A stretch of DNA of 63,349 bases, filler included. It is 9 parts of 9 records of this genome, joined end to end, with 100 filler letters (N's around TTAATTAATTAA, not from the genome) between each part and the next. Parts side by side here need not be neighbours in the genome. Positions count along the whole stretch, not along the records: positions 43,420 to 49,092 come from SRR31156797_33274; 8 more parts are not named here. One strand, written 5' to 3'. How positions within the stretch are numbered: position 1 is the first letter of the stretch; every line of letters begins with the position of its first letter. Positions 6,964-56,033 of the stretch are shown here, piece by piece. The notes under the pieces are model-generated. The model did not search any database and had not been told where the DNA came from. It saw nothing but the letters and a program-made list of their open reading frames with translations. The translations under genes and the position numbers were made by a program.

Positions 6964-7063
6964 NNNNNNNNNNNNNNNNNNNNNNNNNNNNNNNNNNNNN
7001 NNNNNNNTTAATTAATTAANNNNNNNNNNNNNNNNNNNNNNNNNNNNNNNNNNNNNNNNNNNN
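6964..7063. other. Artificial contig linker (N44-TTAATTAATTAA-N44). The same linker recurs at 12540-12639, 18083-18182, 31401-31500, 37777-37876, 43320-43419, 49093-49192 and 55934-56033
   Basis: Identical 100-nt N-spacers with a six-frame stop cassette; GC content and gene style change abruptly across each one. Confidence 0.98.
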
Positions 7064-12539: not shown

Positions 12540-12639
12540 NNNNNNNNNNNNNNNNNNNNNNNNNNNNNNNNNNNNNNNNNNNNTTAATTAATTAANNNNN
12601 NNNNNNNNNNNNNNNNNNNNNNNNNNNNNNNNNNNNNNN

Positions 12640-18082: not shown

Positions 18083-18182
18083 NNNNNNNNNNNNNNNNNN
18101 NNNNNNNNNNNNNNNNNNNNNNNNNNTTAATTAATTAANNNNNNNNNNNNNNNNNNNNNNNNNNNNNNNNNNNNNNNNNNNN

Positions 18183-22491: not shown

Positions 22492-22506
22492 CAAACTAAA
22501 TTTTAA

Positions 22507-24015: not shown

Positions 24016-24060
24016 AAATGGTTTGTTCGATTAAGAATAATCTTGGTTAGTTAGTTATCT

Positions 24061-24113
24061 TAGAGGACAGTTTAGTAATGTACAAATACAGGGCTATCCT
24101 GTCCTCTTCTTTT
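24061..24113 (+). terminator. Stem-loop between susD and the enzyme genes (terminator or mRNA-stabilising)
   Basis: AGAGGACAG...CTGTCCTCT inverted repeat followed by TCTTTT. Confidence 0.45.
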
Positions 24114-24125
24114 AAACAAAAAAAA

Positions 24126-26963: not shown

Positions 26964-26973
26964 ACCCATTTCA

Positions 26974-29109
26974 ATGAAAATTTTATCAGGCTTTTTGCTA
27001 CTCCTAGTTACTTTTTTGTCGTGCACCGTTCGGGAAAAAGACAATGCAATCGACCGGGAAGCACTGGTTATGCGAAACAATGTAGTAATAGAAAAATTCG
27101 ATCCGCTGGCATCGCTTAGTGTTGGAAACGGAGAATTTGCATTTACCACAGACATTACCGGATTGCAAACATTTTATAAAGAATACCACGATGGTGTACC
27201 TCTGGGGACACAATCAAATTGGGGCTGGCACACCATTCCCAATACCGAAAACTTTAAAATGTCGGAAACACTAAAATATTTTGAAGTTGAAGGAAGACAG
27301 GTTCCCTATCGCCACCAAATAAAGGGTGATGCAAGAAAACAGGCAGCATGTAATTATTTCCGGGAGAATCCGCACCGTATGCATTTGGGGATAATTGGTT
27401 TTGTCCTCACCAAAGAGAACGGTGAAAAAGCAGCGATTCAGGACATTAAAAATGTTCACCATAAATTGGATATGTGGACCGGTAAAATCTCAAGCAGTTT
27501 TGAGTTTGAAAACCAACCGGTAAAAGTTGAAGTATATTGTCATCAAACGCAAGACCAGGTTTCAGCAAAAATTGAGTCTCCTCTCATTGCCTCAGGGAAA
27601 TTAGCGGTAAAATGGCAATTCCCTTATGGAGCACCTATTCATTGTCATCCTGGTTATGATTTTGAATCTCCGGAGAAACACCAGACCGAACTAATTTCAG
27701 GAGAAAACACTGCATTGTTTAACCGTCAGTTGGACAACGACAAATATCAGGTTGCTGTAAACTGGCAAGGCAATGCCTCTTTTAAAAAGAATGCAAAACA
27801 TGAATATGTTCTTCAGCCAGAATCGGGAGAATCGTTGGAATTCAACTGCTTGTTTGCACCGAACACCAACCAAAGTCAACCTAAAAGTTTTGCGGAAACC
27901 CAAACAAATAATGCCGAAACCTGGAAATCATTCTGGGGAAATGGTGGCATAGTCGATTTTTCAGCTTGTACCGATCCACGAGCAAAAGAACTGGAACGCC
28001 GAACTGTACTTTCGCAATACTTAACTAAAATTCAAAGCTCCGGCTCGCTTCCACCGCAGGAAACCGGACTTACTTACAACAGCTGGTTTGGAAAATACCA
28101 CATGGAAATGCACTGGTGGCACATTGCACATTTTGCCCAATGGCAACGCGAACAATACATGGAAAAGCAGTTGGATTTCTACAACGAAATGTACAACAAA
28201 GCCCGTGAGACTGCCCAAGACCAAGGATACAAAGGTGTGCGCTGGCAAAAAATGCAGGGGCCAAACCACGAAAATAGTCCTTCTTCGGTTGGTTCGTATT
28301 TAATCTGGCAACAACCGCACATCATCTGGTTTGCCGAACAAATGTACCGTCAAAATCCAACGGAAGAAGTGCTCAACAAATACAAAAAGCTGGTTTTTGA
28401 AACAGCTGAATTTATGGCCGACTTTCCAACCTGGAACGAAGAATTAAAACGATATGACCTGGCACCACCATTAATTCCTGCACAGGAACACTGGCAACGC
28501 GAAACAACTACTAATCCGCCATTTGAACTGGCTTATTGGTACTGGGGATTAACTACCGCGCAAAACTGGAAAGAACGTCTACAGGAAGAAAAAGTAGATG
28601 AATGGGAACAAGTTCGTTTAAAACTTGCAGCTCCAGACCAGGCAGATAGTGTTTACCTTGGAATTCAAGGGGCCACTGAATCGTATACCGACTCTGAGCT
28701 TATGAGAGACCATCCTGTTGTTCTTGGCGCGTATGGTATTTTGCCCGACTGGGATAAAATCGATCCGGAAATTATGCGAAACACCATGCATATAATTGCA
28801 GAAAGATGGAACTGGCCCGAAACCTGGGGGTGGGATTACCCTATGGCGGCCATGGCGGCAACTCGCCTTGACGAACCGGAAATGGCCCTTGAGTTTCTTT
28901 TAAAAGATGTACTAAAAAACACCTACCTCAAAAACGGACATAACTATCAAGGAGAACGACTTCGTTGCTACATGCCTGGCAACGGAGGTTTGTTAACTAC
29001 CATAGGGATGATGTGTGCTGGTTATGATGGATGTACAACCGAAAACCCGGGCTTTCCAAAAGATGGGAAATGGGATGTAAAATGGGAAAACATTTCTCCG
29101 GTATTTTAA
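26974..29109 (+). CDS. Six-hairpin glycosidase-like lipoprotein, family not assigned
   Basis: Lipobox FLSC; LSVGNG N-terminus, PPQETGL..NSWFGKYHMEM, WGWDYP; PUL context. Confidence 0.6.
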   Translation: MKILSGFLLLLVTFLSCTVREKDNAIDREALVMRNNVVIEKFDPLASLSVGNGEFAFTTDITGLQTFYKEYHDGVPLGTQSNWGWHTIPNTENFKMSETLKYFEVEGRQVPYRHQIKGDARKQAACNYFRENPHRMHLGIIGFVLTKENGEKAAIQDIKNVHHKLDMWTGKISSSFEFENQPVKVEVYCHQTQDQVSAKIESPLIASGKLAVKWQFPYGAPIHCHPGYDFESPEKHQTELISGENTALFNRQLDNDKYQVAVNWQGNASFKKNAKHEYVLQPESGESLEFNCLFAPNTNQSQPKSFAETQTNNAETWKSFWGNGGIVDFSACTDPRAKELERRTVLSQYLTKIQSSGSLPPQETGLTYNSWFGKYHMEMHWWHIAHFAQWQREQYMEKQLDFYNEMYNKARETAQDQGYKGVRWQKMQGPNHENSPSSVGSYLIWQQPHIIWFAEQMYRQNPTEEVLNKYKKLVFETAEFMADFPTWNEELKRYDLAPPLIPAQEHWQRETTTNPPFELAYWYWGLTTAQNWKERLQEEKVDEWEQVRLKLAAPDQADSVYLGIQGATESYTDSELMRDHPVVLGAYGILPDWDKIDPEIMRNTMHIIAERWNWPETWGWDYPMAAMAATRLDEPEMALEFLLKDVLKNTYLKNGHNYQGERLRCYMPGNGGLLTTIGMMCAGYDGCTTENPGFPKDGKWDVKWENISPVF

Positions 29110-29130
29110 AATTCGACAAAAATCAACAAC

Positions 29131-31032
29131 ATGATAAAGAAATCACTTCCTGTAATATTTATTTTACTTGCACTTTTTGCTTGTACGCAAAAAGAACAAG
29201 AAGCCCCAAAAAGTGAGTTAGTTCAACGCCTCGAAGGATTTTTTTACAACAAAGAGTTTGTTGTAATTCCTGATGCCACCTTCAATGTGGCAGATTTCGG
29301 AGCCATTGCCGATGGGAAAACAATAGCAACAGAAGCCATCCAGAAAGCGATTGATGCCGCAGCAAAAGCTGGAGGTGGCAAAGTTATTTTTGAGCCTGGC
29401 ACCTATTTATCAGGGGCTCTTTTCGTAAAATCAAATGTGGAATTGCACATTGCAGAAGGGGTGGTTATCCAAGCCATTCAAAATAACGATTATTACCCGC
29501 GAAAGTGGACACGAATTGCCGGAATTGAAATGAAATGGCCCGCTGCTTTAATAAATGTTTACGATGAAAAGAATGTTCGCATTACTGGTAAAGGTGTTAT
29601 TGATGGCAACGGAAGATACTGGTGGAACAAATTCTGGGGCGACCCAAAATACAGTGGAGGTATGTGGGGCGAATACAAAGAAAAAGGCATCCGCTGGGCA
29701 GTTGACTACGATTGTGAGCGAGTGCGTCCGGTGGTGATTTGGGAATCGGAAGATGTTTTATTGAAAGATTTTACCGTTCAACGTGCTGGTTTCTGGACTG
29801 TTTCGTTAACCTACAGCACCCGTGTTCATGTTGATGGTTTGCTTGTTCGTAATAACATCGGCGGACATGGTCCAAGTTCAGATGGAATTGATACCGATTC
29901 TTCAAAAGATATATTGGTTGAAAACTGCGACATTGATTGTAACGACGACAACCTGTGTATAAAAGCAGGAAAAGATGCCGATGGATTACGTGTAAACCGT
30001 CCGGCTGAAAACATCGTTTACCGGAACTGCATTACCCGGGCAGGCCATGGTTTATTAACGCTTGGTAGCGAGACTTCAGGTGGTATGAAAAACATCGAGG
30101 TGTACGGGCTTGAGGCAGACGGAACCAACATTGGAATCCGTTTTAAATCGGCAAAAGTACGAGGTGGGTTAATGGAAAATATCCATTTTCACGATATCAA
30201 AATGAAAAATGTGGCTAATCCGTTTCATTTCGAGTTAAACTGGTATCCGGAGTACAGCTATTGTAATATTCCTGAGTCCATTCCTGAAGAAGAAATAAAA
30301 GAGCGCTGGAGGGTATTAAGTCAACGTGTTATTCCTGAAGAAAAAGGAATTCCTGAATTCAGAAACATAAAGTTGAGTAATATTAAGGTTGAAAAAGCCA
30401 AACGTGCATTTTATGCCAATGCCTATCCCGAAAAACCAATACACCACATTAGCTGGGAAAATGTTTCGGTTGAAGCGGAAGAAAGTGGCAAATTAAGTTA
30501 TGCCAGCGACTGGACCATGAAAAATGTCCAGCTTAAATCGGCCAGTGGTAAGCCAATTGAACTAATTGAGTGTACAAATATTCAGCAACCGGAATTGATT
30601 AAAATGGCTGCTGCACCAAAACAAGAAGAGCGAAAACTAACACTAGATGAACAATTCAGGAAAATAAACTTTAAAGCCGAATTGGTTATTGTACCGGTAA
30701 ACCCCAGTGAAGTGCAAGCTTTGGTAGATGGCGATACAACTTCTTACTCCAAAGAATTTGTTGTACACATTTTAAAAGAAGAAGATGCTAACATGCATTT
30801 TTACGAGCCTCTTGGCGATGGTTTCTACCAGTCGAAGGTTGAAATCGCCACTAAAACCCAGGGAAAACTTATTGAGGTAAAAGGGCAAAAAGACCACGAC
30901 TATACCATAAAAGTACTGCGTACAACCAAACCCCAAAATGTAAAAGGGGCGGATAATTGGAGCTACGACGAAAACACAAGAAAAGTAATAATTGAAAAAT
31001 CGGGAAAAAGTTTCTCACTTCAGATTGACTAA
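29131..31032 (+). CDS. Glycoside hydrolase family 28 (poly/rhamnogalacturonase-like) lipoprotein with C-terminal extension
   Basis: DFGA..DG, SDGID, NDDNLCIKAG, GHG, GSE motifs. Confidence 0.92.
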   Translation: MIKKSLPVIFILLALFACTQKEQEAPKSELVQRLEGFFYNKEFVVIPDATFNVADFGAIADGKTIATEAIQKAIDAAAKAGGGKVIFEPGTYLSGALFVKSNVELHIAEGVVIQAIQNNDYYPRKWTRIAGIEMKWPAALINVYDEKNVRITGKGVIDGNGRYWWNKFWGDPKYSGGMWGEYKEKGIRWAVDYDCERVRPVVIWESEDVLLKDFTVQRAGFWTVSLTYSTRVHVDGLLVRNNIGGHGPSSDGIDTDSSKDILVENCDIDCNDDNLCIKAGKDADGLRVNRPAENIVYRNCITRAGHGLLTLGSETSGGMKNIEVYGLEADGTNIGIRFKSAKVRGGLMENIHFHDIKMKNVANPFHFELNWYPEYSYCNIPESIPEEEIKERWRVLSQRVIPEEKGIPEFRNIKLSNIKVEKAKRAFYANAYPEKPIHHISWENVSVEAEESGKLSYASDWTMKNVQLKSASGKPIELIECTNIQQPELIKMAAAPKQEERKLTLDEQFRKINFKAELVIVPVNPSEVQALVDGDTTSYSKEFVVHILKEEDANMHFYEPLGDGFYQSKVEIATKTQGKLIEVKGQKDHDYTIKVLRTTKPQNVKGADNWSYDENTRKVIIEKSGKSFSLQID

Positions 31033-31400: not shown

Positions 31401-31500
31401 NNNNNNNNNNNNNNNNNNNNNNNNNNNNNNNNNNNNNNNNNNNNTTAATTAATTAANNNNNNNNNNNNNNNNNNNNNNNNNNNNNNNNNNNNNNNNNNNN

Positions 31501-37264: not shown

Positions 37265-37776
37265 ATGAACGTTAATCGTCGTGACTTTCTTAAAATCGCA
37301 GGGGCTTCCGCCGCAGGCGCCGCCATTTTCGGCCTGGACCTGGATTTGAAACCCATCAAAGCCCACGCCCAAACCCTGAAAATCCGCCATGCCAAGGAGA
37401 CAACCAGCATCTGTTGCTATTGCGCCGTGGGCTGCGGCGTGATCTGCAGCACGGGAGAAACCGGCGCGGGGAAAATCATCAACATCGAAGGGGATCCCGA
37501 CCATCCGGTCAATGAGGGGGCCCTCTGTGCAAAAGGCGCCGGCCTGAGCCAGCTGGCCAACAACGACAGCCGCATCACCACGCCCATGTACCGGGCGCCC
37601 TACAGCAACAAATGGCAGGAGGTGTCCTGGGAATGGGCACTTTCAACCATTGCGGAAAGGGTCAAGAGAAGCCGGGATGCCAGCTTCGAGCATCAAAACC
37701 ACAAGGGTCAGGTGGTCAACCGCACCATGGGCATCGCCAGCGTGGGAAGCGCGGCCCTGGACAATGAAGAATGCTG
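37265..37776 (+). CDS. fdnG: Periplasmic formate dehydrogenase alpha subunit (FdnG/FdhA type), 3' truncated
   Basis: Tat signal NRRDFLK; CCYCAVGC Fe-S motif; EGDPDHPVNEGALCAKG; DNEEC. Confidence 0.9.
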
Positions 37777-37882
37777 NNNNNNNNNNNNNNNNNNNNNNNN
37801 NNNNNNNNNNNNNNNNNNNNTTAATTAATTAANNNNNNNNNNNNNNNNNNNNNNNNNNNNNNNNNNNNNNNNNNNNTTCACA

Positions 37883-42311: not shown

Positions 42312-42340
42312 TTGACAACAAACAAAATATTTTGTATAAT
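42312..42340 (+). promoter_or_regulatory. Consensus sigma70 promoter of the FNT gene
   Basis: TTGACA-17 nt-TATAAT, a perfect match. Confidence 0.85.
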
Positions 42341-42409
42341 TTCAAGTACTTTGTTTTATATATCTTAACATTGTTAAATAATTTTAAATTTTTATATAGG
42401 AGGAAAGAA

Positions 42410-43228
42410 ATGAAAGAATCAAAAACTTTATTTCTTACACCAAACGAATCGATTGAGCAGGTTATCAAAATGGGAATTAAAAAAGGTAACACTTCTGCTA
42501 AAAAAATCTTTATACTTGGTGTACTTGCTGGTATGTTTATTGGTCTGGCGTATGTAGGTTATATGACTGTTACTCAAACGCTTGGAGGTTTTGACAAAGG
42601 TTTTGCTAAATTTATGGGTGCATGTGTATTCCCGGTAGGGATTATGTTAGTACTTTTTATTGGTGGATCTTTATTTACAGGTAACAACTTGATGGGTGTA
42701 GCGTATCTTGACAAGAAAATCAGTATTGGTCAAATTGCTAAAAACTGGAGTGTTGTTTGGTTAGGAAACTTTGTTGGATGTTTTTTACTTGCAGTTATTG
42801 CATATTACGGAGGAGTGTTCGACGGGATTCATATGAAGGAAGCTGCTGTACATTTAGCTGAGCACAAAGCTCACCTGAATTTTGTAAATGCTCTTTTCAG
42901 CGGATTCTTATGTAACTTAGTTGTTTCAACAGCTGTTTGGATGACTCTTTGTGGTACTGATCTGTCTGGTAAAATTTTAGCTTCTTGGTTCCCGATTATG
43001 TTATTTGCCTTATCTGGGTATCAACATTCAGTTGCAAATATGTTCTGTTTAAGTATCGGTAAAATTTTAGCACCACAAGCTTTCACTTTAGGACAAGCTT
43101 TCTTTAATAATTTATTACCTGTTACTATTGGTAATGCTTTATCTGGTGGTATCTTTATCCCGGTTATTTATTACTACTTATATGGTAAGAAAAAAACTGA
43201 AGCTAATCTTGCTGCTGCAAAAAATTAA
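42410..43228 (+). CDS. Formate/nitrite transporter (FocA/NirC family)
   Basis: VFPVG, LFTGN, GNFVG, GFLCN, GYQHSVANM, TIGN motifs; AGGAGG RBS. Confidence 0.95.
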   Translation: MKESKTLFLTPNESIEQVIKMGIKKGNTSAKKIFILGVLAGMFIGLAYVGYMTVTQTLGGFDKGFAKFMGACVFPVGIMLVLFIGGSLFTGNNLMGVAYLDKKISIGQIAKNWSVVWLGNFVGCFLLAVIAYYGGVFDGIHMKEAAVHLAEHKAHLNFVNALFSGFLCNLVVSTAVWMTLCGTDLSGKILASWFPIMLFALSGYQHSVANMFCLSIGKILAPQAFTLGQAFFNNLLPVTIGNALSGGIFIPVIYYYLYGKKKTEANLAAAKN

Positions 43229-43419
43229 ATTAATATAATATATTTACCGTAGGGAGGCTGACCGAAAAGTCTTTACCCGAATGTGAGCAATAGGTTTCTC
43301 CTGACTTGAGGAGAAACCGNNNNNNNNNNNNNNNNNNNNNNNNNNNNNNNNNNNNNNNNNNNNTTAATTAATTAANNNNNNNNNNNNNNNNNNNNNNNNN
43401 NNNNNNNNNNNNNNNNNNN

Positions 43420-45336
43420 AATGCCATGTTTATCATCCTCTCCGTAAATGGTCCAAATTTCTTCCAGGGTAAAAGCTTTACCATCGTGTAAATATGGTGC
43501 CGATGCATAAATGTTATTCAAGTGAGGTGTATCGAATAACATTGAGTCGTCGGTTGCTGCAAGCGTTCCTACATCGAACATTTGGAAATTGGAATAATAC
43601 GGTGCCGGGTGACAAGTAACGCATCGATCCAGTTCGGCAATTTCATTTCCATTATTATCTACCGTTCTTTCAAATATCTCTTTCCCACGTTTTTGAGATT
43701 CGGTTAGTTCGCCATTAGGATTGTGCATCAGGTTTGGAGGTGCTTTTATATCGGTTAAAATATACGAAACCAGCGCATCCAAATCGGGATAACTAAACTG
43801 TTCTGTTCGTGTTAACACCGTTGAGAACCGCATGCCATCCTGTTTGTAAACGGTTTGATTTTTCCCATTCCATTTAAAAGGAGCTGTACCATTTATTTCT
43901 CTTAACGACTGTGTATTTGTTGTGTTTCGTCCCATATCTTTTCCGGCCATATTATAAATCAAACCATCTTCGTGCGAATCGGGATGACATGTATAACAGG
44001 CATACTGATTTTGGAAAGTACCGGCAGCACTGCTAAAAACCCTTCTTCCTTTTCGGGCAACTGTAATCCGTTCGGGTCCACCCAAATCTATTTGATTTAT
44101 CGATTCCAATGTTTCAGTATTTATCACATTTACTTTATCGTTTAAATGCTCAGCCACATATAAATAAGCGCCATCGGGTGAAATTGCCATCCCCTTTGGA
44201 TTATGCCCGGTTGGAATTCGTTTTATTATATAACGGCTGCTGAGGCCAAGATTATTTGCCAGGATTTCCAGATCTTCGTTAACCGATTCCTTTAATATGG
44301 TCCGAACAGAATCCAATGAAATTACCGAAATACAATCGACACCAGCACTGGAGACAAAAGCTTTTTTCCCATTGGGTGTGATTACGATATCAAAAGGATC
44401 GGAATAGTAAGAATTTGGCTCGTCGAGTAGCAACTGAATTATTCGTCCTTCACCGGATTGTTCTATAATTCCAAAACCATGATTCATCATCCACCCTCCT
44501 TCAACCTGAACGGTAGGAACATTATTTTTGGGTCGAATTAAAACCATTAATGCCAGGTCTCCGGTTGGTGTAAATGTAATGTTCTCCATTAAATAGGCCG
44601 ATTCTATACCCAACGCTTTTGAAACTCTTTGGTTTTTCCCATTTATTTCCATAACATCGGTAACCAAAGGTTCGCCAAAATGAACCATGTGCCCGCGTCG
44701 GCTGGAAACATATAGTTTTTCACCCCCGGGAGAAATTGCCATTCCCGTAGGATCATTTCCTGCCGGTAATCTTTTTATTTCCTGTTTATTTTCAAGATTT
44801 ATTACTGAAAGATCGGATCCAAATGTATTGACTACATACAGCAAACTTCCATCTTTACTTAATGATAGTCCGGATGGGCCATTTCCTGTTTTAAGCGTAT
44901 CAACAACTTCATATTTTTCAAGATTGATAACAGAAACATTATCTGACCACTGATTACTCACATATGCAAAGTCTCCTTCATTGGAAAGCACAATGCTGTG
45001 CGGATGGTTTCCTACTTTAATTTTATTGATAACACTGTTTCCTTTTGCATCTACAACAATTAGTTCTCCGGCATCCTGTGCCACAACAAACAAAAGATTG
45101 CCGTCGTTTGATACCACTAAATTATATGGAGACAGATAATCTTCTTTGTTAAAAAGTTTATTTGCCAAACTGTTTTCCTGTATATAAAAATGGCAGGATG
45201 TGCAGTTTAGTGGATGATCATCGACTGCCGTTTGATAATTTACATGCTCCCGCGCAAAATACCTTCCGGGAAAATAGATTAATAATCCCAGAACTACAAT
45301 TACAGCTAATACTGTGAATAATTTTGATACTTTCAT
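43420..45336 (-). CDS. N-terminal haem-c + YVTN beta-propeller + di-haem CCP/MauG-like protein (HzsB-HzsC fusion-like), 3' truncated
   Basis: CTSCH near the N-terminal anchor; repeated YVxN..VSVI..G..P propeller blades; CYTCH, TAPFKWNG, CVTCH, FDTPHL..SAPYLHDG. Confidence 0.8.
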
Positions 45337-45338
45337 AA

Positions 45339-46760
45339 CTATTCCAACTCTACTTTAAATTCAGTTATTCCTTCAATTTCTTTTGGAATAAACACAGGAT
45401 CTTTCTTTACTGAAAGTGGTTGTCTGTTAAAAGGTGAAATTTCATTTCCTGAATGACAGCCCACACATCCCCGACGTTCGTTTGGTCGCATATACATCCA
45501 TGCTCCTGGCCCACTTACATTTTCACCATTAGCTGTTAACGTTTGCAACCTAAACGGAGTATCGGCCAAAATTTTTATATAAAAAGAACCATCTGTTTCC
45601 ACATTCACAACCCCAATTGTTGAATCGATTCCCATAATTGCAACCTTTTCTGCTTTTAGCTTTTCAGGATTATTATCTCCCAATTCAGTTCCATAAAAAT
45701 TTATATCCTGGCACATTAGCAATCCGGTTTTTACTCCCATATTTACTTCACTGGGTAAATTTCTTGGTCGTTCGCGTTGAATAACTTCAACTGCATCACC
45801 AATGTTAAATCCTTCCTTTTTGTAAATTAATGAAAGCTGAGAAGTTTCATCATCTAACTTATAGAGAGAATAATTGTCAGCGTTATTGTTGCGGAAAGCT
45901 ACCAAAAATCCTCCCGATTGAGATGGATGAACATTACTAAAATTGCCTTCAATATCAGATGATATATTTATATTGCTTTTTAGCGGACGATTATAATCAA
46001 CCGAAATTAAATCTCCTTTGCCTTCATTGGATTCGACAAATACAATTTTTCCATTTTGTGTTTCCTTTACCCGACTTATGATTTTACCATTTCTCTGATG
46101 TTCGCAAAACAATTCTAGTTTTGTGCCATCAGGTCGCATGACCATTATTTTATCATTGTTTTTTTCTGGGAAAACCTGTTGGCTTATTGTAATTATCCGG
46201 CCATCATTAAGAATATTCGAAGCCAAATAGGTATTTGGATTAAACGTAATTTGTCGAAAGTCAGTTCCATCCAGATTTCCAGTAAAAAGTGTATAAGCTG
46301 TTTTTACTGTATCGTTGTTTAGTTTACGGCTAAATACAAATCTTCCTCCGGGCAAATATACCGGACTAACACAATTTTCATTAAAAAATGTTATTTGTGA
46401 AGCCTTGCGGTTGGATAAATTCATATGCCAGATTTGCCATGTCGCACCCGGTTCTTTTTGCGCCGAAAAAAGCATGGATTTCCCGTCGTATGAAACGGAA
46501 GGCGAAACGGCAGAAGTAAAATCTTCTGTAAGACTTAAAACTTCATTTCTCTTCTGATCGGGATTTATTGCCATGATTTGAGATTCCTGAAGAGTTACTA
46601 GTGAATTCAAATCACTTTTCCCTGTTTCTGTTTTTTCTGCCGGAATTTGTGTAAACACAATCATTCCATCCTGTGGTTTATTATTACATGAAAAAAAACC
46701 AACAATAAATAAAACAAAAACCCATTCTTTCAAATATTTCAATGAAATGTTTCTTGTCAT
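45339..46760 (-). CDS. Hydrazine synthase alpha-subunit-like lipoprotein (PD40/TolB-like propeller + HZS alpha middle domain, one haem c)
   Basis: Lipobox FFSC; PSVSYDGKSMLFS propeller; VETDGSFYIKILADTPFRLQTL...WMYMRPNERRGCVGCH. Confidence 0.75.
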   Translation of the reverse strand: MTRNISLKYLKEWVFVLFIVGFFSCNNKPQDGMIVFTQIPAEKTETGKSDLNSLVTLQESQIMAINPDQKRNEVLSLTEDFTSAVSPSVSYDGKSMLFSAQKEPGATWQIWHMNLSNRKASQITFFNENCVSPVYLPGGRFVFSRKLNNDTVKTAYTLFTGNLDGTDFRQITFNPNTYLASNILNDGRIITISQQVFPEKNNDKIMVMRPDGTKLELFCEHQRNGKIISRVKETQNGKIVFVESNEGKGDLISVDYNRPLKSNINISSDIEGNFSNVHPSQSGGFLVAFRNNNADNYSLYKLDDETSQLSLIYKKEGFNIGDAVEVIQRERPRNLPSEVNMGVKTGLLMCQDINFYGTELGDNNPEKLKAEKVAIMGIDSTIGVVNVETDGSFYIKILADTPFRLQTLTANGENVSGPGAWMYMRPNERRGCVGCHSGNEISPFNRQPLSVKKDPVFIPKEIEGITEFKVELE

Positions 46761-46769
46761 AATAAAATA

Positions 46770-48443
46770 CTATTCCGGTTCATCAACTGTTACTACCTGG
46801 TTTACTTTTACATTCTCTAAGGTTTGCAATTTACCGGAAGGCCACTTTATTTCTATTTTTTCAATATTATCGGCATCGGCAATCCCAAAATGCACTCTTG
46901 AATCGTTTTGCGACAAGTAACCTGTAGTACTCTTCACTTGTGCAATCTGTGTTTTTCCTCCTGCGGTAATTTTAATTCTTGCTCCTACTCCGTCGCGATT
47001 ACTTGAATGTCCTACCAGTTTAAGAAGTATCCAATTATTTTCCTGCCCTTTGTTGTTGCGTAAGAACTTACTTTGCCCGTTTAAATTCAAAATAAAAACA
47101 TCAATATCTCCATCATTATCATAGTCGCCTAGACAGGCACCTCTTCCAACAAATTCTTCTCTAAAATAGCTACTCAAATTTACCGAAACATCGCTGAATT
47201 TACCATTACCCAAATTCTCAAACATTTGATCTTCGTGCCCGTATAAATGTTTCGTTTCTCCATTCGATTTAAAAATGTCTACATCGCCATCGTTATCGTA
47301 ATCAATAAAAGAAGACGACCAGCCAACAAACTGCCCCGATGCAATTGAAATTCCTGAAACGTACGATTTATCGCTAAACACTCCATTTCCTAAGTTTTCG
47401 TATAAAGAGCAATAGTTATCATCTGAAATAAACATATCCAACAACTCGTCGCCATTAAAATCGGCAAAATCTACCGACATGCTAACGGTGGCTTCTCCGG
47501 CCTGGCTAAAACCTGTCCCCGACATTGTCCCTTTATTTGTAAAACTCCCACCTCCGTTATTATGCCATAAATAATTCACAGTATGGTCGTTGGCAACATA
47601 AATATCGACATAACCATCGTCGTTATAATCGGCAGCTCCAACTCCCATCGCCCGGCCATCGACATCTGTAATTCCCATTTCTTCTGTTACATCTTCGAAA
47701 GTGCCATTTCCAAGATTACGATATAAAATATCGGGTTGACTATCGTATGCCAGTGGTCCGGGAAAACCATCGGGTGCATAAAAATAGTTGTACTCGGGAT
47801 CGAAACTGAGGTAGTTTCCAACATAAAGATCCAGGAATCCGTCGTTATCAAAATCAAGCCAAACCGCACCAACACTAAATTGTTCTTCTTCGCCTCCAAC
47901 TTTGGCTCGTTTTGTAACATCGTCGAATGTTCCGTTTCCATTATTCTTATACAGCACATTTTCGCCATAATTGGAAACAAATAAATCGGGATATCCATCG
48001 TTATTATAATCGCCAACAGTAACACCCATGCTATACCACGGACCTCCAACACCGGCCTTTTGGGTAACATCTTCAAAAGTTCCGTTTCCAAGATTGTGAT
48101 ACAAACGATTACCCGGCAAATTATCCGGTTTTTCTTCGTCGCTTAATCCTTCAATCCAAGTTCCACTGCATGTGTAAAGATCGATAAATCCATCCTGATC
48201 GAAATCGAGAAATGCAGCTCCCGAACCGCTCGATTCTACAATATTATTTAATTCATCGTCGCCCAGTGAATGAATAAAATCCAAACCAATTTCTTCTCCT
48301 ATTTGCTGAAAATACTCGTTGTTTGAAGGTGGTGGTTCTTTAATTTCCTGTTGAGATTCGGAATGCGTATTGTTGTTCGAATTACACCCAATAAGGATGA
48401 TAATAAAGACGATAAGAATAGTATAGTTATAGTTTAATTTCAT
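46770..48443 (-). CDS. CRTAC1-family FG-GAP propeller + ASPIC/UnbV lipoprotein
   Basis: Lipobox LIGC; multiple D(F/Y)xxDGxxD repeats; SNRDGVGARI, GYLSQNDSRVHFG, IKWPSG. Confidence 0.92.
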   Translation of the reverse strand: MKLNYNYTILIVFIIILIGCNSNNNTHSESQQEIKEPPPSNNEYFQQIGEEIGLDFIHSLGDDELNNIVESSGSGAAFLDFDQDGFIDLYTCSGTWIEGLSDEEKPDNLPGNRLYHNLGNGTFEDVTQKAGVGGPWYSMGVTVGDYNNDGYPDLFVSNYGENVLYKNNGNGTFDDVTKRAKVGGEEEQFSVGAVWLDFDNDGFLDLYVGNYLSFDPEYNYFYAPDGFPGPLAYDSQPDILYRNLGNGTFEDVTEEMGITDVDGRAMGVGAADYNDDGYVDIYVANDHTVNYLWHNNGGGSFTNKGTMSGTGFSQAGEATVSMSVDFADFNGDELLDMFISDDNYCSLYENLGNGVFSDKSYVSGISIASGQFVGWSSSFIDYDNDGDVDIFKSNGETKHLYGHEDQMFENLGNGKFSDVSVNLSSYFREEFVGRGACLGDYDNDGDIDVFILNLNGQSKFLRNNKGQENNWILLKLVGHSSNRDGVGARIKITAGGKTQIAQVKSTTGYLSQNDSRVHFGIADADNIEKIEIKWPSGKLQTLENVKVNQVVTVDEPE

Positions 48444-49192
48444 ACTGCAATAATAATTATTCTCTTTAAACATTTCAACTTTTCAATTAATTAGTTTAGC
48501 CCCATTTCAAGAAAAAAACAATTTTTAACTCTACCTCAAAATCAACAGAAAATAAATACATTAAATAGAATTTCTACTTTAAATATCCGTTGATCAGACT
48601 ACCATTGCAAACCAAACAAATATAACATATGTTCGATTAATAAAAAATATTTATTACTCTCGATCCGCATTTATTGCACATTCCGTGGACAAAACAAAAG
48701 ATGTATTGGAACTTTTAATCTACTACCTTTTTGTAATATTTACAACTCTAAAACTTTATACACCGTACAAAATCAGCATTTTTAGAAATAAAAAAGCTCT
48801 ACCATTCATTATAAAAAATTCTACAGAAAAAATATTAACTAAAATCATTATAAATATTCAATCTGCATTACCGGATTCAACTGCGTTAATTTTGGGTACA
48901 AAAAGCTCCATAAGTAATTGAATAAAAACAACTGCTATTTTTAAAATTCTTAAATAATATCGACTTATTTTTTAATTGCCTAGTTCTCTAAAACCAATTC
49001 ATTATTTCATTCGAATTTTGCAAAATGAAAAGGGACAATCCTTTCCATGGTTCAATAATCTCATAAGTTTTTCTACATTTGTGCCGGAATTANNNNNNNN
49101 NNNNNNNNNNNNNNNNNNNNNNNNNNNNNNNNNNNNTTAATTAATTAANNNNNNNNNNNNNNNNNNNNNNNNNNNNNNNNNNNNNNNNNNNN

Positions 49193-50757
49193 ATTGCAAT
49201 TTTTCCATACTCGGAATCAGAAGCCATTTCTTCGGCGTGTGTAATTAGCTCCCGGCCAAAACCTTTGTGTTGCCAGTCTTTGTTTCCGGCATCTTTTCCC
49301 ACAGCCACAGTTGATCCAAAAATATGTAGCTCCCTGACAAGTGCTGTATTTTGTAACTCTTCTCTGTGAGGCTCATCCGGGAACCTCAATCTCAGGAATC
49401 CTATTAATATGTCTTTTTTAACGTCCTCAAAGGCAATAAAGTGTTCTTTCCCGCCGCAGCAGTCATAGGATTCAACTGTCAACTCTATGTTTTCCATGTC
49501 AGGCTCAATCCCTCTTAGCATATTGTGTCCGACTTCCCGGCATCTGATACAGCGACACTTTCCACCATGTTGTTCCAGGTGTTCATGTGCAAGCTGACGA
49601 ATGTTGCTTTTTCGAACACCTGCAAGTATCTGTGGCGAGGGTATATCTCTTTGTATGCGTTGTAGTCTGACCCATTTAGGTATGAATGATTTTATCCTTG
49701 ACAGTAACAATGTAGCTTCATCATCTGTCAGGGCATCATATTTGCCCTGCTTCCACATCTCATGCAGTTCTGTTCCTTCGGTAACAAGGGTGGGATATAT
49801 CTTGAGATAATCCGGCCTGAATTCCGGATTATTAAAAAGTCGTTTAAATATCCTTTCATCCATCTCCACATCGGTTCCCGGAAGGCCGGGCATCATATGG
49901 AATCCAACTTTTAAGGCACTATCTCTCAGGGCACGATTGGCCTCAATGCTGTCGGCAACAGTGTGACCCCGCCTCATTCTTTCAAGAATAAAATCATAGG
50001 TACTCTGTACTCCGATTTCAACCTTTGTTGCTCCAAGTTCCAGCATCTTGTCGATGTGCGGTCCTTTTGTCCAGTCCGGACGTGTTTCAAATGTGATGCC
50101 GGTATTCCTGACCTCAGCTGTTTCATTTGCCTTCTGGACGTCTTCAATCGTATAATATGGAATTGTTTTTCCTATGGGACTTGCCTGTTCTCTCCAGGAA
50201 TCTCCATAGAAATCATTCATTGCCTCAAGGCATCGTTTAGTGTACCATTCCTGGTAGTCTATGGACCTTGCAGAAAAAGTCCCTCCCATGACAATGAGCT
50301 CGGCCTTTTTTACCTCATGTCCTATCTGTTTTAGTTGGGTAAGCCGGTTAGTCACTATTTTGTAAGGATCGTATTCAAACTGCATGGCTCTCATGGTGGA
50401 AGGTTCCCTTCCCATGTAGCTCTGTGGTGAATGAAATTCTGATTCCGGGCCGCCAGGGCATGGAAGGCAGATTCCATGAGGGCAGGGTGCAGGTGATGTC
50501 ATTGCTGCGATTACGGCAACACCCGATATGGTTCGCACGGGTTTGCGCTGGAGTATTGCACGGACCCTTTCCTGTTCTTCATCGTTTCCCGAAATAATTA
50601 TGTCTGCATTTTTCGGGAGGGTTGAAAGACGAAAACTTTTAGCAATCTTTTTCTTTGCTACATTTAACTGCTTTTCATCAGTTATGCTACCTTCCAGTAC
50701 CATATCCAGTATTTTCCGGCAGCCTTTTTGAAAATCGTCTGTGTTGTTGTCTGTCAT
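49193..50757 (-). CDS. elp3: tRNA U34 acetyltransferase Elp3 (radical SAM + GNAT), 3' truncated
   Basis: RTISGVA, CPHGICLPC, PQSY, ETRPD, RIQRDIP, WQHKGFG. Confidence 0.95.
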
Positions 50758-50794
50758 TCAAACCATCAATGTTTAAAAATATGAACTCTGCAGT

Positions 50795-51823
50795 TTACTG
50801 GCAGAATCCTGCAACGAGAGCTTCAAGCTGTATCCGATCGTTTGCACTTTCAGTCAGGTAGAAATCAGTGTCAGCTATCTTGGTGACCCACCTGGCAATG
50901 ATATCATCCGGTTCATTGTAGTTAACTGCGGTCTTATGAAGCTCCAGCAGTATTTCCTGTCCTGAAAGACCCTCTTCAAGTATCAGCGCATCAATGTATT
51001 TTCTGGATTCAAGCACATTTTTTGCAATAATTGATTCAAAGAGCTTCGTAACGTTCTCTGATTGCTCTCCAAGGGTTGCATCGTAGATCTGCTGTGGTCC
51101 TATACTTTCAGTCTCCGGCTGAATTGATGCTATCTGGAGTGTATTCAATGCCTTTGCAATGTTTCCTCTTGCATGATACACCAGTGCATCAATGCCATCA
51201 GTGTCAACTGTCAGACCCTCTGTCTCAATGACGGATGATATAAATTTTGCAAGCTTATCGTGGGAAACATGAGTAAAGAATAGCTGCAATCCTCTTGACC
51301 TCAAAGGTGCTATTAGTTTTGAGGGTTGGGTGGTCGAGAGAATAAAACGACACGTTGTCGTATATTTCTCCATAATTCTTCTTAAGGCATGTTGTGCATC
51401 AGAATTGAGAGATTCGGCATTGTCTATGAAAATTATCTTGTAATCTGCATCCATTGGCGCCATGCCTGCATATTCATTGATGACTTCCTTGAATACGTAT
51501 ATCACGCTATGGCTGATCTTCTTCGGGTCATCTGTCCCGAGAATACGCAGGAATCTCTTGTCTCTCACAAGGTAACTCTTTCCCTGCTCAAAGAAATCAG
51601 ATGCATTAAAATATGCCATGTTGCGCTCGTAACCCTCGCCATATAGCTCAAAGGCAAGTGCAAAGGCTGTACTTGACTTGCCTGAGTTTTCCGGTCCATG
51701 GAATACAAGGTGTGGAAGGTTGTTGGACTCTACCAGCTTACTGATCATTTCCAGGGATTGTTCATTTCCAACGATGTCCTCCAGGGTTTTAGGCCGGTAT
51801 TTTACAGTCCACAGGTCCTTCAA
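50795..51823 (-). CDS. Replication factor C small subunit, second (RFCS2-type) paralogue
   Basis: WTVKYRPKTL, NASD, ALRRIMEKY, PLRSR; altered Walker motifs. Confidence 0.85.
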   Translation of the reverse strand: MKDLWTVKYRPKTLEDIVGNEQSLEMISKLVESNNLPHLVFHGPENSGKSSTAFALAFELYGEGYERNMAYFNASDFFEQGKSYLVRDKRFLRILGTDDPKKISHSVIYVFKEVINEYAGMAPMDADYKIIFIDNAESLNSDAQHALRRIMEKYTTTCRFILSTTQPSKLIAPLRSRGLQLFFTHVSHDKLAKFISSVIETEGLTVDTDGIDALVYHARGNIAKALNTLQIASIQPETESIGPQQIYDATLGEQSENVTKLFESIIAKNVLESRKYIDALILEEGLSGQEILLELHKTAVNYNEPDDIIARWVTKIADTDFYLTESANDRIQLEALVAGFCQ

Positions 51824-51837
51824 TAGATCACTTCTCC

Positions 51838-53529
51838 TTATTCTGCATCTACTGCTTCTGATACAAGTACTTCATGTATTACTTTTCCGTATACAGGTCT
51901 TGCGATCAGGATTCCTATAAGTACTCCCACAATGGTCGTGATGGCAAATCCTTTAAGCGCACCAAATCCCATGACGACCAGAGGTGACATTGCAATAATG
52001 GTTGTTGCAGCTGCTGCAAATATTATTCCGAATGCTTTTGTTATCCTTGAAAGGTAGACCTTTCTCGGAGGTAGCTTTCCTTCGTACAGCACTTCGTCTG
52101 TGATTATCACCAGGTGGTCGATTCCGGTTCCTATGGCTGCAATGATACCTGCAATACTTGCAAGATCAAGCTGCCACCCGATTGCAGATGCAAATCCGAG
52201 TATCATTATTACTTCGCTGATGGAAGTGCTCACCATTGGTACGAGAATAGCTGGCTTGTGGTATTTCCTGAATACTACTAAAGCAACAGCAAGCAGTGCA
52301 AGAAGTCCTGCGATGACAGCCTGTGTCTTGAACTGTTGTCCAAGGGTTGCATCAACATGTCCAGAACCCATTATTTCTACTTTTACAGGTAATGCACCGG
52401 CTCTTAAGTGAATTTGCAGTTCCTCTGCCTGTGTCTTACTTTCATCATCGGGTCCGGTGGATGCCTGCCATGAGTAAATAGGTGTTGAGGCAAGTCTTGC
52501 TGCTGCAGAATAACTAAGAGGTGCACTGTAAACCTCATTCTCGTCGAGGTACATCACAAGGTTATGTGACATAGGGTCAGTTGTAGCACCGGTCTCAATG
52601 GCAACTTCCTGAAGCGCAAGAGCTCCGTCTTCCGTTAATGTGAATGGTACATACCATTGTCCGTCTGCTTCATGGAATCCTACAATGCTGACAGATTCGA
52701 TCTCATCTCCATAAAGGGCATGTTTTGACTCGTTACCCTGGGTTATAATTCTTATTTCGAATTTCCCGGGTTTTTCAGCAATGTTCTTTGCTGTTGCAAG
52801 ATCTATTCCTGCAAAGTCAATGAGTATATAATCGTCACCTACGGTTTTTACCGGGATGTCCTTAAGACCAAGGGAATTGAGTTTATCGCTCAGGATATCT
52901 TTTGTCATATCCCTTGTTTCTGTTGTAACACCTTCCTTGTAGATTGCATCACCGTTGCTGTCAGTCTCAATGGAACCACCAACGTTTGCCATGAGTTCTT
53001 CAAGTTCTTCCTGGTTGACTGCGGTTCGTATTTCATATTCGATTCCATCGGAAACAAGTGTAGGCAGAACTTCTGCTTTGAGTGAATCAGCAAGGTACGA
53101 ACTTATCAGTGTTGACTTTGATGTGTGCATTATCACATTGGTGACATTGTTACTTCGGGATATTGTTGCCTGTCCCACTCCAAGCTGATCCATCTGGGTA
53201 TTTGTGAGTATTGAAGATGAAGAAAACTTAATTGTAGTATCATCGTCTTCCTCCTCAACAGATATGATCTCAACTTCCTCTCCAAGATTGATATTGACTA
53301 TTTCCTTCATGAGCAGGCCATTGTCAGCGTCAAGCTGGGCAACAGCACCCTGAAGTCTTAGTTGTAACCAGGAACCACCTTCAAGATCAAGCCCGTAATT
53401 AAGGTTAGTTGTAAATCCTTCATCAGAGGAATATCCGGGGTGTATGAATATTATTGATCCGAGAATTGCAAGGATGAAAATTATTACTCTGGCATCCTTG
53501 AATAAACTCTGTTTTTCATCGTCCTTCAT
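51838..53529 (-). CDS. secD: Protein-export membrane protein SecD (archaeal)
   Basis: YGLDLEGG, LRAGALPV, IGTGIDHLVII; ATG overlaps the secF stop (ATGA). Confidence 0.95.
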   Translation of the reverse strand: MKDDEKQSLFKDARVIIFILAILGSIIFIHPGYSSDEGFTTNLNYGLDLEGGSWLQLRLQGAVAQLDADNGLLMKEIVNINLGEEVEIISVEEEDDDTTIKFSSSSILTNTQMDQLGVGQATISRSNNVTNVIMHTSKSTLISSYLADSLKAEVLPTLVSDGIEYEIRTAVNQEELEELMANVGGSIETDSNGDAIYKEGVTTETRDMTKDILSDKLNSLGLKDIPVKTVGDDYILIDFAGIDLATAKNIAEKPGKFEIRIITQGNESKHALYGDEIESVSIVGFHEADGQWYVPFTLTEDGALALQEVAIETGATTDPMSHNLVMYLDENEVYSAPLSYSAAARLASTPIYSWQASTGPDDESKTQAEELQIHLRAGALPVKVEIMGSGHVDATLGQQFKTQAVIAGLLALLAVALVVFRKYHKPAILVPMVSTSISEVIMILGFASAIGWQLDLASIAGIIAAIGTGIDHLVIITDEVLYEGKLPPRKVYLSRITKAFGIIFAAAATTIIAMSPLVVMGFGALKGFAITTIVGVLIGILIARPVYGKVIHEVLVSEAVDAE

Positions 53530-54428
53530 GCTTTGCGCCTCCTTGTTCCGGCGTTGGCTACATGCCATCTGAGTATGGATGTGTTAAGCAACCATGTATT
53601 CATCATATCGGCTATCAGTCCGAATATCAGGACGATGGATATGTTTGACAGAAGTGTAATTTGTGATAGTGATGAGCTTAAAAGGTATGCGTAGGTTGAT
53701 ACAATATACATCACTGTTAGTGCAGCAAGGGTCGTGGTTGTCATTGTTATACCGGTATGCATTGCATTGGTAATGTTTTCCTGTGGGGTACCACGTCTTT
53801 TAAGCACCCTTGTGGTAAGCAATATGTCACTGTCTACCGAGTAACCGATAAGCATTAACAGGGCTGCTACGGTTCCAAGAGATAGCTCAATTCCCAGTAT
53901 ATTCATGAAAGCAGCTGCAATAGTTATGTCTGAAAGTGCTGAAACAACAACTGCAAGGGAAGGTACCACTGTCCTGAATATCAAGAAGACAACTAATGCC
54001 ATGCCTATGAATGATATAATTACAGCTTTTATGGCCTGTTTCTGCAGTGATTCACCGTAAACCGGTCCAATCTGGTTTATTTCCACATTCTCGTATGAAT
54101 CTATTACTCCACTGATCAGCTCTTGCTGTAATTCTTCACTCATTGGTCCGAATTGCATTATGACACGTGATCCGGTCTGTCTGACATCAGTGAGGGGGTA
54201 ATCTGCATACTTTTGTTCAATTGATGACACACTTTCCCCGGTTGCCACAGAGATTAGTGTACCACCTTTAAATTCCATTCCTAGCTTTACAGGTGCACCA
54301 CTGCTTGCAAACATAGCTGCAAGTATCAACAATGATATTGCAAAAATAGCAAGTGGTATGGCTGCAAGCTGACGATCGTTATGTTTTCTGACAAAAGAAT
54401 CTAAACGTTCAGTCAAACCGACTTCCAT
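53526..54428 (-). CDS. secF: Protein-export membrane protein SecF (archaeal)
   Basis: LGMEFKGGT, LMLIGYSVDSDILLT. Confidence 0.95.
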   Translation of the reverse strand: MEVGLTERLDSFVRKHNDRQLAAIPLAIFAISLLILAAMFASSGAPVKLGMEFKGGTLISVATGESVSSIEQKYADYPLTDVRQTGSRVIMQFGPMSEELQQELISGVIDSYENVEINQIGPVYGESLQKQAIKAVIISFIGMALVVFLIFRTVVPSLAVVVSALSDITIAAAFMNILGIELSLGTVAALLMLIGYSVDSDILLTTRVLKRRGTPQENITNAMHTGITMTTTTLAALTVMYIVSTYAYLLSSSLSQITLLSNISIVLIFGLIADMMNTWLLNTSILRWHVANAGTRRRKA

Positions 54429-54538
54429 GCTTTTATACTCCGGGAATAATAGCTTAACAATTCCTTATAAATTATTGAATTGATAAATACTCTCTTACAC
54501 TATAACTTATATATACCACTTACTGCCTCTCTTATGCA

Positions 54539-55000
54539 ATGACTGACAGGCCAAGTATAGATGAGTATTTGCTTGAGATCGCGACCGTTGTGGCTAAACG
54601 TTCCACCTGTCTTAGAAATAAGGTAGGCGCTGTGATCGCCAGGGATAAACGCATACTTTCCACGGGATATAATGGTGCTCCAAGGAATATGGCTCATTGT
54701 CTTGATATAGGCTGCATCAGGGAGCAAAACAACATCGCTTCAGGCACACGCCATGAAAAATGTCGTGCTGTTCATGCTGAGCAGAACGCTATTATCCAGG
54801 CAGCTCTTCATGGAGTAAGTACCGATGGTGCAACGCTTTACTGCACCCATCAGCCATGCATACTGTGTACCAAGATGATAATTAATTCTAATATCAAAAG
54901 GGTAGTTTATATCCAGCCTTATCCTGATACCGATGCCCTTGATTTCTTCTCGGATTCCGGTGTCGAGGTTATCAATATAGCAATCTCAGACTTTGCTTAA
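54539..55000 (+). CDS. dCMP deaminase (ComEB-like)
   Basis: RSTC, GYNG, HAEQN, PCILC zinc motifs. Confidence 0.92.
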
Positions 55001-55747
55001 ACAGCGAAGTCCTTTTTTTACTATATCTTCCCGCTCACTGCGGTACATTTCTTTTATTGAGCCTTCTTCTGACCGAAGCTCAAGTCCTCTGACAATAACT
55101 ACAGGATATCCTCCGTCACCTTCTCCCATGAGCAGATTTGCTGCCCCTGCAATCTCATCTGCTATGGCTTCCTCGGTGATTTCCAGAGTATTGCCAAAAA
55201 GATCTTTCTGTCCTTTCCAGTTCATAATCGGATGAATTTTGTACACGCCAACGGCAATGCCAGTTTGCCCGATTTTAAACGCTCTGCCGTTGGTGTCTGT
55301 TACAATGATACTGACTTTCTTTCCGGTCTGCTTTTCTATTTTCTCTCCGATGAGTCCTGCACTCTGGTCGGGATCAGTAGGAAGGTCTGCAAGGTATCCT
55401 TTGTCAACATTTGAGTCATCGATCCCGGCTTTTATACAAACATGTCCGTTGTCGGTTTCTACAAGAAGTATCGGGAATTCCACAAGAATCTCATGACTAC
55501 GGTCAAGTACTGCCTGTACGAATCTCGGATCCAGTCCATGATGCATATTTGCAATCCTTTCTGCATCATTGCATGCAGTTATATCTTCAAGCCTGAACAT
55601 CCTGCCATTAGCTTTTGAAATGATGGTGGATGCTATGACTATGATATCATTGTCTTGAATTTCTGTTTTTTCACAGATGATCGATGCAATATCATCTCCC
55701 TCATTTATCAGGGGGATGTTCTCGACAGTAAATACCTGCATGTTCAA
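54986..55747 (-). CDS. cofE: Coenzyme F420-0:L-glutamate ligase
   Basis: [36 protein letters not shown]. Confidence 0.95.
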
Positions 55748-56033
55748 TTAGGATTCTCCGGACGTATACGTTCTTTGTTACTTCAATTACACTCCAATGT
55801 TAAATAAGGATGTGATGGTTTGGCTCTGTAAAAAATCTGCTAAATAAACTTTTGACTCAGCATTTTTCGATAGCTACATTATTTCTTTACTCTTCAGGAT
55901 AGTAGTGAAGGAACGCGCCGCCTGCGGCGGGTGNNNNNNNNNNNNNNNNNNNNNNNNNNNNNNNNNNNNNNNNNNNNTTAATTAATTAANNNNNNNNNNN
56001 NNNNNNNNNNNNNNNNNNNNNNNNNNNNNNNNN

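Follow-up and report, generated by a model that had tools for sequence, protein, structure and literature searches.

Hydrazine synthase (HZS), an enzyme of anammox bacteria, was long thought to be without relatives. The subject of this report is a cluster of three genes related to it, found in a stretch of DNA of 63,349 nucleotides, filler included, that was analyzed as a whole and will be called the window.

Two papers describe clusters of this kind. Hagglund et al. (Genome Biol Evol 2025, PMC12758564), in the portions of their text drawn on here, distinguish four clades of co-located homologues of the alpha subunit and of a fused beta-gamma protein outside the anammox bacteria. In their clade III, an FG-GAP/CRTAC1 gene lies 5' of a short alpha gene that lacks the haem alpha-II domain, the beta-gamma protein has one extra haem motif, and two binding-protein genes follow downstream. 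They report that key residues are not conserved in the non-anammox homologues and conclude that these are not hydrazine synthases. Tyr591, which in anammox HZS is a ligand of haem alpha-I and stands four residues past the His of the CxxCH motif, is described in the same paper. The second account, a survey of metagenome-assembled genomes (MAGs) from cold seeps (Nat Commun 2025, PMC11828985), likewise used here in part, speaks of "previously undescribed HzsA" and reports HzsA-like genes, accompanied by fused BC partners, in Bacteroidota as well as in other phyla; 16 of the MAGs belong to Bacteroidota, and the genes are said to be transcribed in sediments and functionally capable.

The cluster in the window is best regarded as a non-anammox, HZS-like cluster of Bacteroidota with the layout of clade III and not as a hydrazine synthase, a reading to which I would give a probability of about 0.8. 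Its alpha, beta and gamma parts are genuinely, if distantly, homologous to the subunits of HZS from Kuenenia stuttgartiensis (structure 5C2V), and the residues that define the chemistry of the enzyme are, judging by the alignments, absent. The type of cluster was in print by 2025, in both papers (so far as consulted), contrary to the novelty implied by a preliminary description of the window; what the window adds is only a new and truncated member.

Homologues of hydrazine synthase subunits in the window

The cluster consists of three open reading frames (ORFs) on the minus strand, as are all features within them, in the order gene 1, gene 2, gene 3. The spacings are 9 and 2 nt, and the tight coupling noted in the preliminary description is thereby confirmed. 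All three products carry export signals (two are lipoproteins and one is a protein anchored at its N-terminus), and together they contain four haem motifs, one in the alpha homologue and three in the beta-gamma protein. In what follows, counts of conserved residues and motifs cover 41 relatives, and analyses of loci cover the best 80 (L001 to L080) of 214 confirmed relatives.

Gene 2 (45339..46760, 473 aa) encodes the HzsA-related protein. The product is a lipoprotein (lipobox Cys25, 46686..46688) with a propeller of the PD40/TolB-like type, followed by an HZS_alpha middle domain (45453..45638, residues 375-436; Pfam E-value (E) 1.1e-15) that terminates in the only haem motif of the protein, CVGCH (45453..45467). 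The earlier account of a PD40-propeller lipoprotein with an HZS-alpha signature was thus accurate. The protein is also matched by the NCBIfam model hydrazine_alpha (E 6.4e-30), and its top match in a sequence search of the PDB is 5c2v_A (E 5.2e-17). An AlphaFold2 (AF2) model, with a predicted local distance difference test score (pLDDT) of 82.6, leads in Foldseek to 5c2v_A as the first hit (E 3e-23, with a TM-score by query, TMq, of 0.77 and a TM-score by target, TMt, of 0.49 over the chain), as compared to E 6e-11 and TMq 0.47 for TolB.

Gene 3 (43420..45336) encodes the HzsBC-related fusion. Since position 43420 is the end of the contig, the gene has lost its 3' end: 639 aa are readable, and the length of full-length relatives (about 675 aa) indicates that some 36 aa are missing. 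From the N-terminus, the protein has a hydrophobic membrane helix (45265..45321), an extra haem motif, CTSCH (45190..45204), a seven-bladed HzsB-like propeller (44116..45147) and an HzsC/CCP-like di-haem domain (43420..44076; CCP, cytochrome c peroxidase). The haem motifs of the last, CYTCH (43984..43998) and CVTCH (43609..43623), are about 125 residues apart, with Trp489 (43870..43872) between them, and His637 (43426..43428) lies near the readable end. All 41 relatives have three CxxCH motifs in this protein.

The homology of gene 3 to HZS extends over both halves. Pfam places its propeller among the YncE/lactonase (YVTN)-type families, and the NCBIfam models hydrazine_beta (E 1.9e-58), hydrazine_BC (E 4.3e-59) and hydrazine_gamma (E 6.5e-18) all match. 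Kuenenia HZS again comes first in the sequence search of the PDB, through 5c2v_B over the entire propeller (E 4.2e-47) and 5c2v_C over the di-haem domain (E 1.8e-14). A profile of the gamma domain built from the 41 relatives finds 5c2v_C at E 2.8e-24, MbnH (6e1c) at 1.3e-6 and di-haem peroxidases at 5e-6 to 1e-4. With a model of the propeller, Foldseek returns 5c2v_B first (E 3.8e-34, TMt 0.91), so that the structural match to Kuenenia HZS, named as a check in the preliminary description, was found for the alpha homologue and for the propeller of gene 3.

Gene 1 (46770..48473, 567 aa) encodes a lipoprotein of the CRTAC1 type. The gene had been recognized previously and is real, but the position given for its start, 48443, is the second in-frame Met, and the ORF reaches 48473. 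The protein begins with a signal peptide whose lipobox residue, Cys30 (48384..48386), is kept in at least 90% of the relatives, and it satisfies the CRTAC1/ASPIC-UnbV architecture, a propeller of FG-GAP repeats (Pfam FG-GAP_3 in 7 stretches, E 4.5e-55, 184.5 bits) and then a C-terminal UnbV_ASPIC domain (46788..46991; Pfam E 3.7e-24, 84.8 bits against a cut-off of 23.4), in agreement with its initial identification as an FG-GAP/ASPIC-UnbV lipoprotein. It is 63-78% identical to the product of the upstream gene in related loci. A search of the literature on bacterial CRTAC1/UnbV proteins turned up no paper that, as listed, deals with function.

Departures from hydrazine synthase

The scores against the NCBIfam equivalog models (NF052339-NF052342) provide a first measure of distance from the true enzyme. 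All four are far beneath the cut-offs: 103.7 bits against 800 for alpha, 198.3 against 560 for beta, 64.8 against 625 for gamma and 200.4 against 1250 for the BC fusion. The preliminary description held that the cluster has exactly the folds of anammox HZS. This is correct insofar as homology to alpha, beta and gamma is concerned, but in the alpha homologue the C-terminal haem domain is missing: the product of gene 2 stops 37 aa past its only CxxCH motif (one such motif in each of the 41 relatives), leaving out the bis-His haem alpha-II domain. Nor, in the alignment with 5c2v_A, is there an equivalent of Tyr591. No Tyr occurs in the 11 residues following the haem motif of the window protein, and just 2 of the 41 relatives have one.

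The gamma domain has changed at two further positions, numbered here by anchoring on the first haem motif in the printed 5C2V alignments. The position of Cys165, which in the anammox enzyme makes a third covalent link to haem gamma-I, falls inside a 5-residue deletion in gene 3, and any Cys in the region is found in 1 of the 41 relatives. At the position of His144 stands Trp489, a Trp in all 41 and the residue seen in CCP and MauG. It is the combination of equivalog scores that fall far short, the missing alpha Tyr, haem alpha-II and Cys165, and the replacement of His144 by Trp that indicates a protein other than hydrazine synthase.

Set beside the Kuenenia enzyme as a whole, the cluster has in common with it the alpha propeller with its middle haem domain, the seven-bladed beta propeller with a loop in blade 6, and the di-haem gamma domain, in which a His close to the C-terminus is conserved. 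It differs in that the window alpha has one haem rather than two and no Tyr/Zn site, that gamma has Trp in place of His144 and no Cys165, that beta and gamma are fused and have gained an N-terminal haem and a membrane anchor, that the alpha gene precedes beta-gamma, and that a CRTAC1-type partner completes the trio.

The cluster may next be compared with clade III, as set out in the portions of the paper used (PMC12758564). The likenesses are the gene order FG-GAP/CRTAC1, alpha, fused beta-gamma, which is also that of 79 of the 80 loci of relatives; an alpha protein without its last 100 or so aa, without haem alpha-II and without an equivalent of Tyr591; a beta-gamma protein with one extra haem motif and Trp for the gamma His144; and binding-protein genes downstream, which are seen in the relatives of the window cluster. 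The window itself differs in holding the first three genes only, with the third truncated. The residue results agree with those for the homologue clades of that paper, except for the residue of the beta loop considered below.

It is nevertheless fair to ask whether the cluster might encode a genuine hydrazine synthase and hence an unrecognized capacity for anammox in Bacteroidota. All three HZS subunits do have true homologues here, and the cold-seep survey reads similar, transcribed Bacteroidota genes in that way (PMC11828985, in part). Against it stand the equivalog scores and the residue tests just described, which, so far as alignments can decide, side with Hagglund et al. over the anammox interpretation. 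The carriers of the genes, moreover, include cultured strains of Maribacter, which are aerobic heterotrophs. A multihaem family of the hydroxylamine oxidoreductase/hydrazine dehydrogenase type (PF13447), such as an anammox genome would also encode, is found in none of 5 carrier genomes, which is weak evidence, since 14 control genomes are equally silent. I consider a genuine hydrazine synthase very improbable.

Several observations do weigh against the reading adopted here, and they are brought together at this point. Beyond the published view of such Bacteroidota genes as anammox potential (PMC11828985, in part), there is the loop of the beta subunit, where one HZS-like feature may have been kept: aligned with a Glu of the Kuenenia blade-6 loop, which may be the one that binds Mg, is an acidic residue in all relatives (37 Glu and 4 Asp of 41), whereas Hagglund et al., in the text used, report that the Glu is not conserved in the homologues. 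The di-haem domain, which the preliminary description had called CCP/MauG-type in an anchored propeller fusion, scores 25.4 bits with the Pfam model CCP_MauG (PF03150), marginally below the cut-off of 25.6. The fusion itself stands. In the AF2 model of the beta-gamma protein, pLDDT is about 30 over residues 434-639, and the gamma fold is therefore claimed from sequence alone. When the profile of the gamma domain was compared with the canonical CCP of Maribacter, only the C-terminal 66 columns aligned, so that a peroxidase-type distal pocket remains putative. The placement in clade III is by layout, which fits the description in the text of the paper. Finally, I infer the association of the three proteins into a complex; a prediction of a complex between the alpha homologue (residues 26-473) and the CRTAC1-type protein (residues 45-567) scored 0.01 against a mark of 0.34, which is uninformative either way.

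Relatives, the wider operon and the contig

A database search with the alpha homologue found 1,269 relatives at E <= 0.001 within the length range searched. The best 120 of these are about 475 aa long and 45-58% identical to it, and the few among them that are named come from Bacteroidota, one being labelled "HzsA-related protein". The 214 confirmed relatives mentioned above come from a scan of one genome per species over 185,579 species. Every record among the best 80 of the 214 is from Bacteroidota (Bacteroidales, Prolixibacteraceae, Flavobacteriaceae and others), which bears out the proposal that the host is a Bacteroidota-like, non-anammox organism. These 80 include three cultured carriers, Maribacter luteus, M. 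aquimaris and M. polysiphoniae, and the nearest to the window among them is L001, a MAG of Prolixibacteraceae, with 74, 56 and 76% identity for the CRTAC1-type, alpha and beta-gamma proteins, respectively. In a sample of 300 further genomes of the class, no match reaches E <= 1e-30. The family is rare and patchy.

The survey of synteny that the preliminary description had proposed found the trio to be strictly conserved. In 79 of the 80 loci the gene immediately upstream of alpha is a relative of CRTAC1, and in 79 the gene immediately downstream is a relative of beta-gamma; the single miss on each side is due to the end of a contig. The gaps between the genes are 2-12 nt.

This conservation also speaks to the concern that the three genes were brought together by an error of assembly. 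The record does concatenate short metagenomic contigs of different organisms, yet no join lies within 43420..49092, and the same order and spacing recur in the independent loci. One public DNA run contains a fraction of 0.90 of the sampled words of the sequence, but that run is perhaps the source sample and so not independent. The likelihood of an artefact of this sort appears negligible.

Calling and clustering of ORFs over the 80 loci extended the operon beyond the trio. It continues with a Reg_prop propeller (70 of 80 loci), a protein like RidA/L-PSP (52 of 80), a first binding protein of the Peripla_BP_6 family (63 of 80), DAHP synthase (52 of 80) and a second Peripla_BP_6 protein (59 of 80), after which there is often a large TPR-FG-GAP-UnbV protein. 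The RidA-like protein, which would be cytoplasmic, and the DAHP synthase, a genuine one, lack signal peptides, according to N-termini inspected by eye in three loci. The two Peripla_BP_6 genes are orphans, in that no transporter genes accompany them (e.g., L016, 5918-18603, and L057, 8194-21283), and in the ESM Atlas the fourth gene of the operon finds Reg_prop propellers only. A two-component pair of the CusR/CusS type lies upstream in 28-30 of the 80 loci, and a divergent SusC/SusD pair in 8-13. The trio in the window is the 5' part of the operon, three of about eight or more genes. The remaining genes were sought elsewhere in the window, on its eight further contigs, and were not found there.

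Some peculiarities of the 80 loci deserve mention. Within the same loci, identity falls off much faster for the alpha homologue (43-56%) than for the CRTAC1-type protein (63-78%) or the beta-gamma protein (about 59-76%). Three loci (L025, L031 and L036) have two tandem CRTAC1-type genes 5' of alpha, the second copy in L025 being seemingly fragmented, and in four (L036, L059, L064 and L076) the beta-gamma gene is in two pieces, through a frameshift or an error of assembly.

Nine contigs concatenated end to end make the window a pseudomolecule, as is evident from eight identical joins (6964-7063, 12540-12639, 18083-18182, 31401-31500, 37777-37876, 43320-43419, 49093-49192 and 55934-56033), each composed of N44, a 12-base six-frame stop spacer and a second N44. 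The GC content of the contigs ranges from 0.31 to 0.54, indicating a mix of organisms. The contig carrying the trio (43420..49092; 5,673 bases, GC 0.365) is bounded by N44-TTAATTAATTAA-N44 joins at both ends, the one on the left at 43320..43419 and the one on the right, identical in form, at 49093..49192. The preliminary description spoke of a contig, and the trio does lie on one, but that contig is just these 5,673 bases of a concatenated record, and only sequence inside them is physically linked to the trio. Besides the three genes, it contains an AT-rich, non-coding stretch of 619 bases 5' of gene 1 (48474..49092), presumably the promoter region, in which open frames do not exceed 112 codons and nothing resembles the genes found upstream in relatives.

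The genes beyond the joins lie on other contigs and so permit no conclusions regarding host or pathway. To the left is a gene for a formate/nitrite transporter, to the right are genes for ELP3-like, RFC-type and SecDF proteins, and further off are sigma-54 regulators, a SusC/D locus and others; the neighboring contigs come partly from other kinds of organism. The transporter (42332..43228), suggestively close, was considered as a partner of the HZS-like genes and was rejected, as it is on a separate contig. That contig (37877-43319) is very AT-rich (GC 0.31) and also encodes a dCache-GGDEF cyclase, a flavodoxin/4Fe-4S protein and a fragment of an IS200-like transposase. The contig to the right (49193-55933) has genes of archaeal or eukaryotic type and comes from an organism other than that of the trio: an ELP3-like radical SAM/GNAT protein cut at the join, the small subunit of replication factor C (50795..51823) and SecD/SecF. 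Elsewhere in the window are a gene for a molybdopterin oxidoreductase with a twin-arginine (TAT) signal (37265-37776), broken by the end of its contig after about 170 codons, and a polysaccharide locus of Bacteroidota type (19033-31032) in which SusC/SusD-like genes are followed by a GH106 alpha-L-rhamnosidase and two more large genes.

Putative chemistry of the cluster

The most likely function of the cluster is that of a periplasmic, membrane-tethered haem oxidoreductase with chemistry of the peroxide or nitric oxide (NO) type. The preliminary description had ventured a tethered periplasmic multihaem complex and left its chemistry unassigned, and the present evidence stops at the same place. 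To go further, one must look to the di-haem domain. It resembles the di-haem CCP, MauG and MbnH proteins (PF03150) in its two haem motifs, in the Trp between them and in the signature region at its C-terminus. It differs in falling under the Pfam cut-off, in aligning with those proteins by its C-terminal part alone, in its fusion to a propeller, and in His637. This residue, invariant across the relatives, is matched in the alignment by a His of Kuenenia gamma, presumably a haem ligand, and lies a few residues past the Met of the aligned solved peroxidases, a residue that I also take to be a haem ligand.

From the likenesses one might suppose the beta-gamma protein to be a plain tethered di-haem peroxidase that defends against hydrogen peroxide (H2O2), the alpha homologue and the CRTAC1-type protein being merely co-expressed envelope proteins. 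The invariant Trp between the haems would suit such an enzyme, as would the alignment of the C-terminal CCP signature region with solved peroxidases and the two-component pair (of CusRS/HprRS type, a family with members responsive to copper or peroxide) upstream in some of the loci. The explanation is unlikely in view of the strict synteny of the trio, its narrow gaps and its recurrence in three separate clades (PMC12758564, in the text used). No solved peroxidase, besides, comes nearly as close to the gamma domain as HZS gamma does, His637 corresponds to the HZS residue, and Maribacter luteus, a carrier, encodes a separate canonical CCP.

Somewhat less likely again is a maturase akin to MauG or MbnH, in which the di-haem domain would use H2O2 or O2 to oxidize residues of the CRTAC1-type or alpha partner, giving a protein-derived cofactor or a metal site. 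Weak matches to MbnH/MauG families in NCBIfam (TIGR04039 at 1.3e-6 and TIGR03791 at 4.9e-4) and that to 6e1c point in this direction, along with the position of the Trp between the haems, the constant adjacency of a partner gene and, in some relatives, an upstream two-component system of the metal type. In di-haem CCP and MauG proteins the second haem has a Met or Tyr ligand, Tyr being that of MauG. The residues that would be modified are not in evidence, however, His637 has its counterpart in the His of Kuenenia gamma, and the alpha homologue has a haem of its own, for which a mere substrate would have no need.

For the haem oxidoreductase that I favor, a scheme can be offered, though its details, taken as a whole, are more doubtful than not. 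The three proteins would form a membrane-tethered redox complex in the periplasm. Electrons from the membrane would enter by way of the additional haem at the N-terminus of the beta-gamma protein and proceed to the C-terminal haem, probably bis-His through His637, and thence across Trp489 to the N-terminal haem, which is like that of gamma-I. The latter, as the catalytic haem, would reduce or activate a small oxidant, most likely H2O2 in the manner of CCP and MauG, or else NO. The one haem that the alpha homologue has, predicted to be ligated canonically by His, may be a second site of reaction or of electron transfer, and the CRTAC1-type propeller may be an accessory subunit or a partner that presents the substrate.

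A bolder proposal, and an improbable one, is that the cluster encodes a nitrogen enzyme with two sites in the style of HZS but outside anammox. The gamma-like haem would reduce NO (or NO derived from nitrite) to hydroxylamine, which would pass to the alpha haem, there to be reduced in turn to ammonium or to be coupled to an amine supplied by the orphan binding proteins. If this were true, N-N or N-O chemistry would be taking place in ordinary heterotrophs, some of them aerobes.

Whatever their chemistry, environmental surveys now tally clusters such as this one as "hzsA". Arguing against the practice are the absence of HZS-specific residues, the cultured Maribacter carriers, the rare and patchy distribution, and the place of the genes within a larger conserved operon. 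The non-anammox clusters are at present the only view available of the origin of hydrazine synthase, and the chemistry of this strictly conserved envelope system of three proteins and four haems can be tested in the Maribacter strains that carry it.

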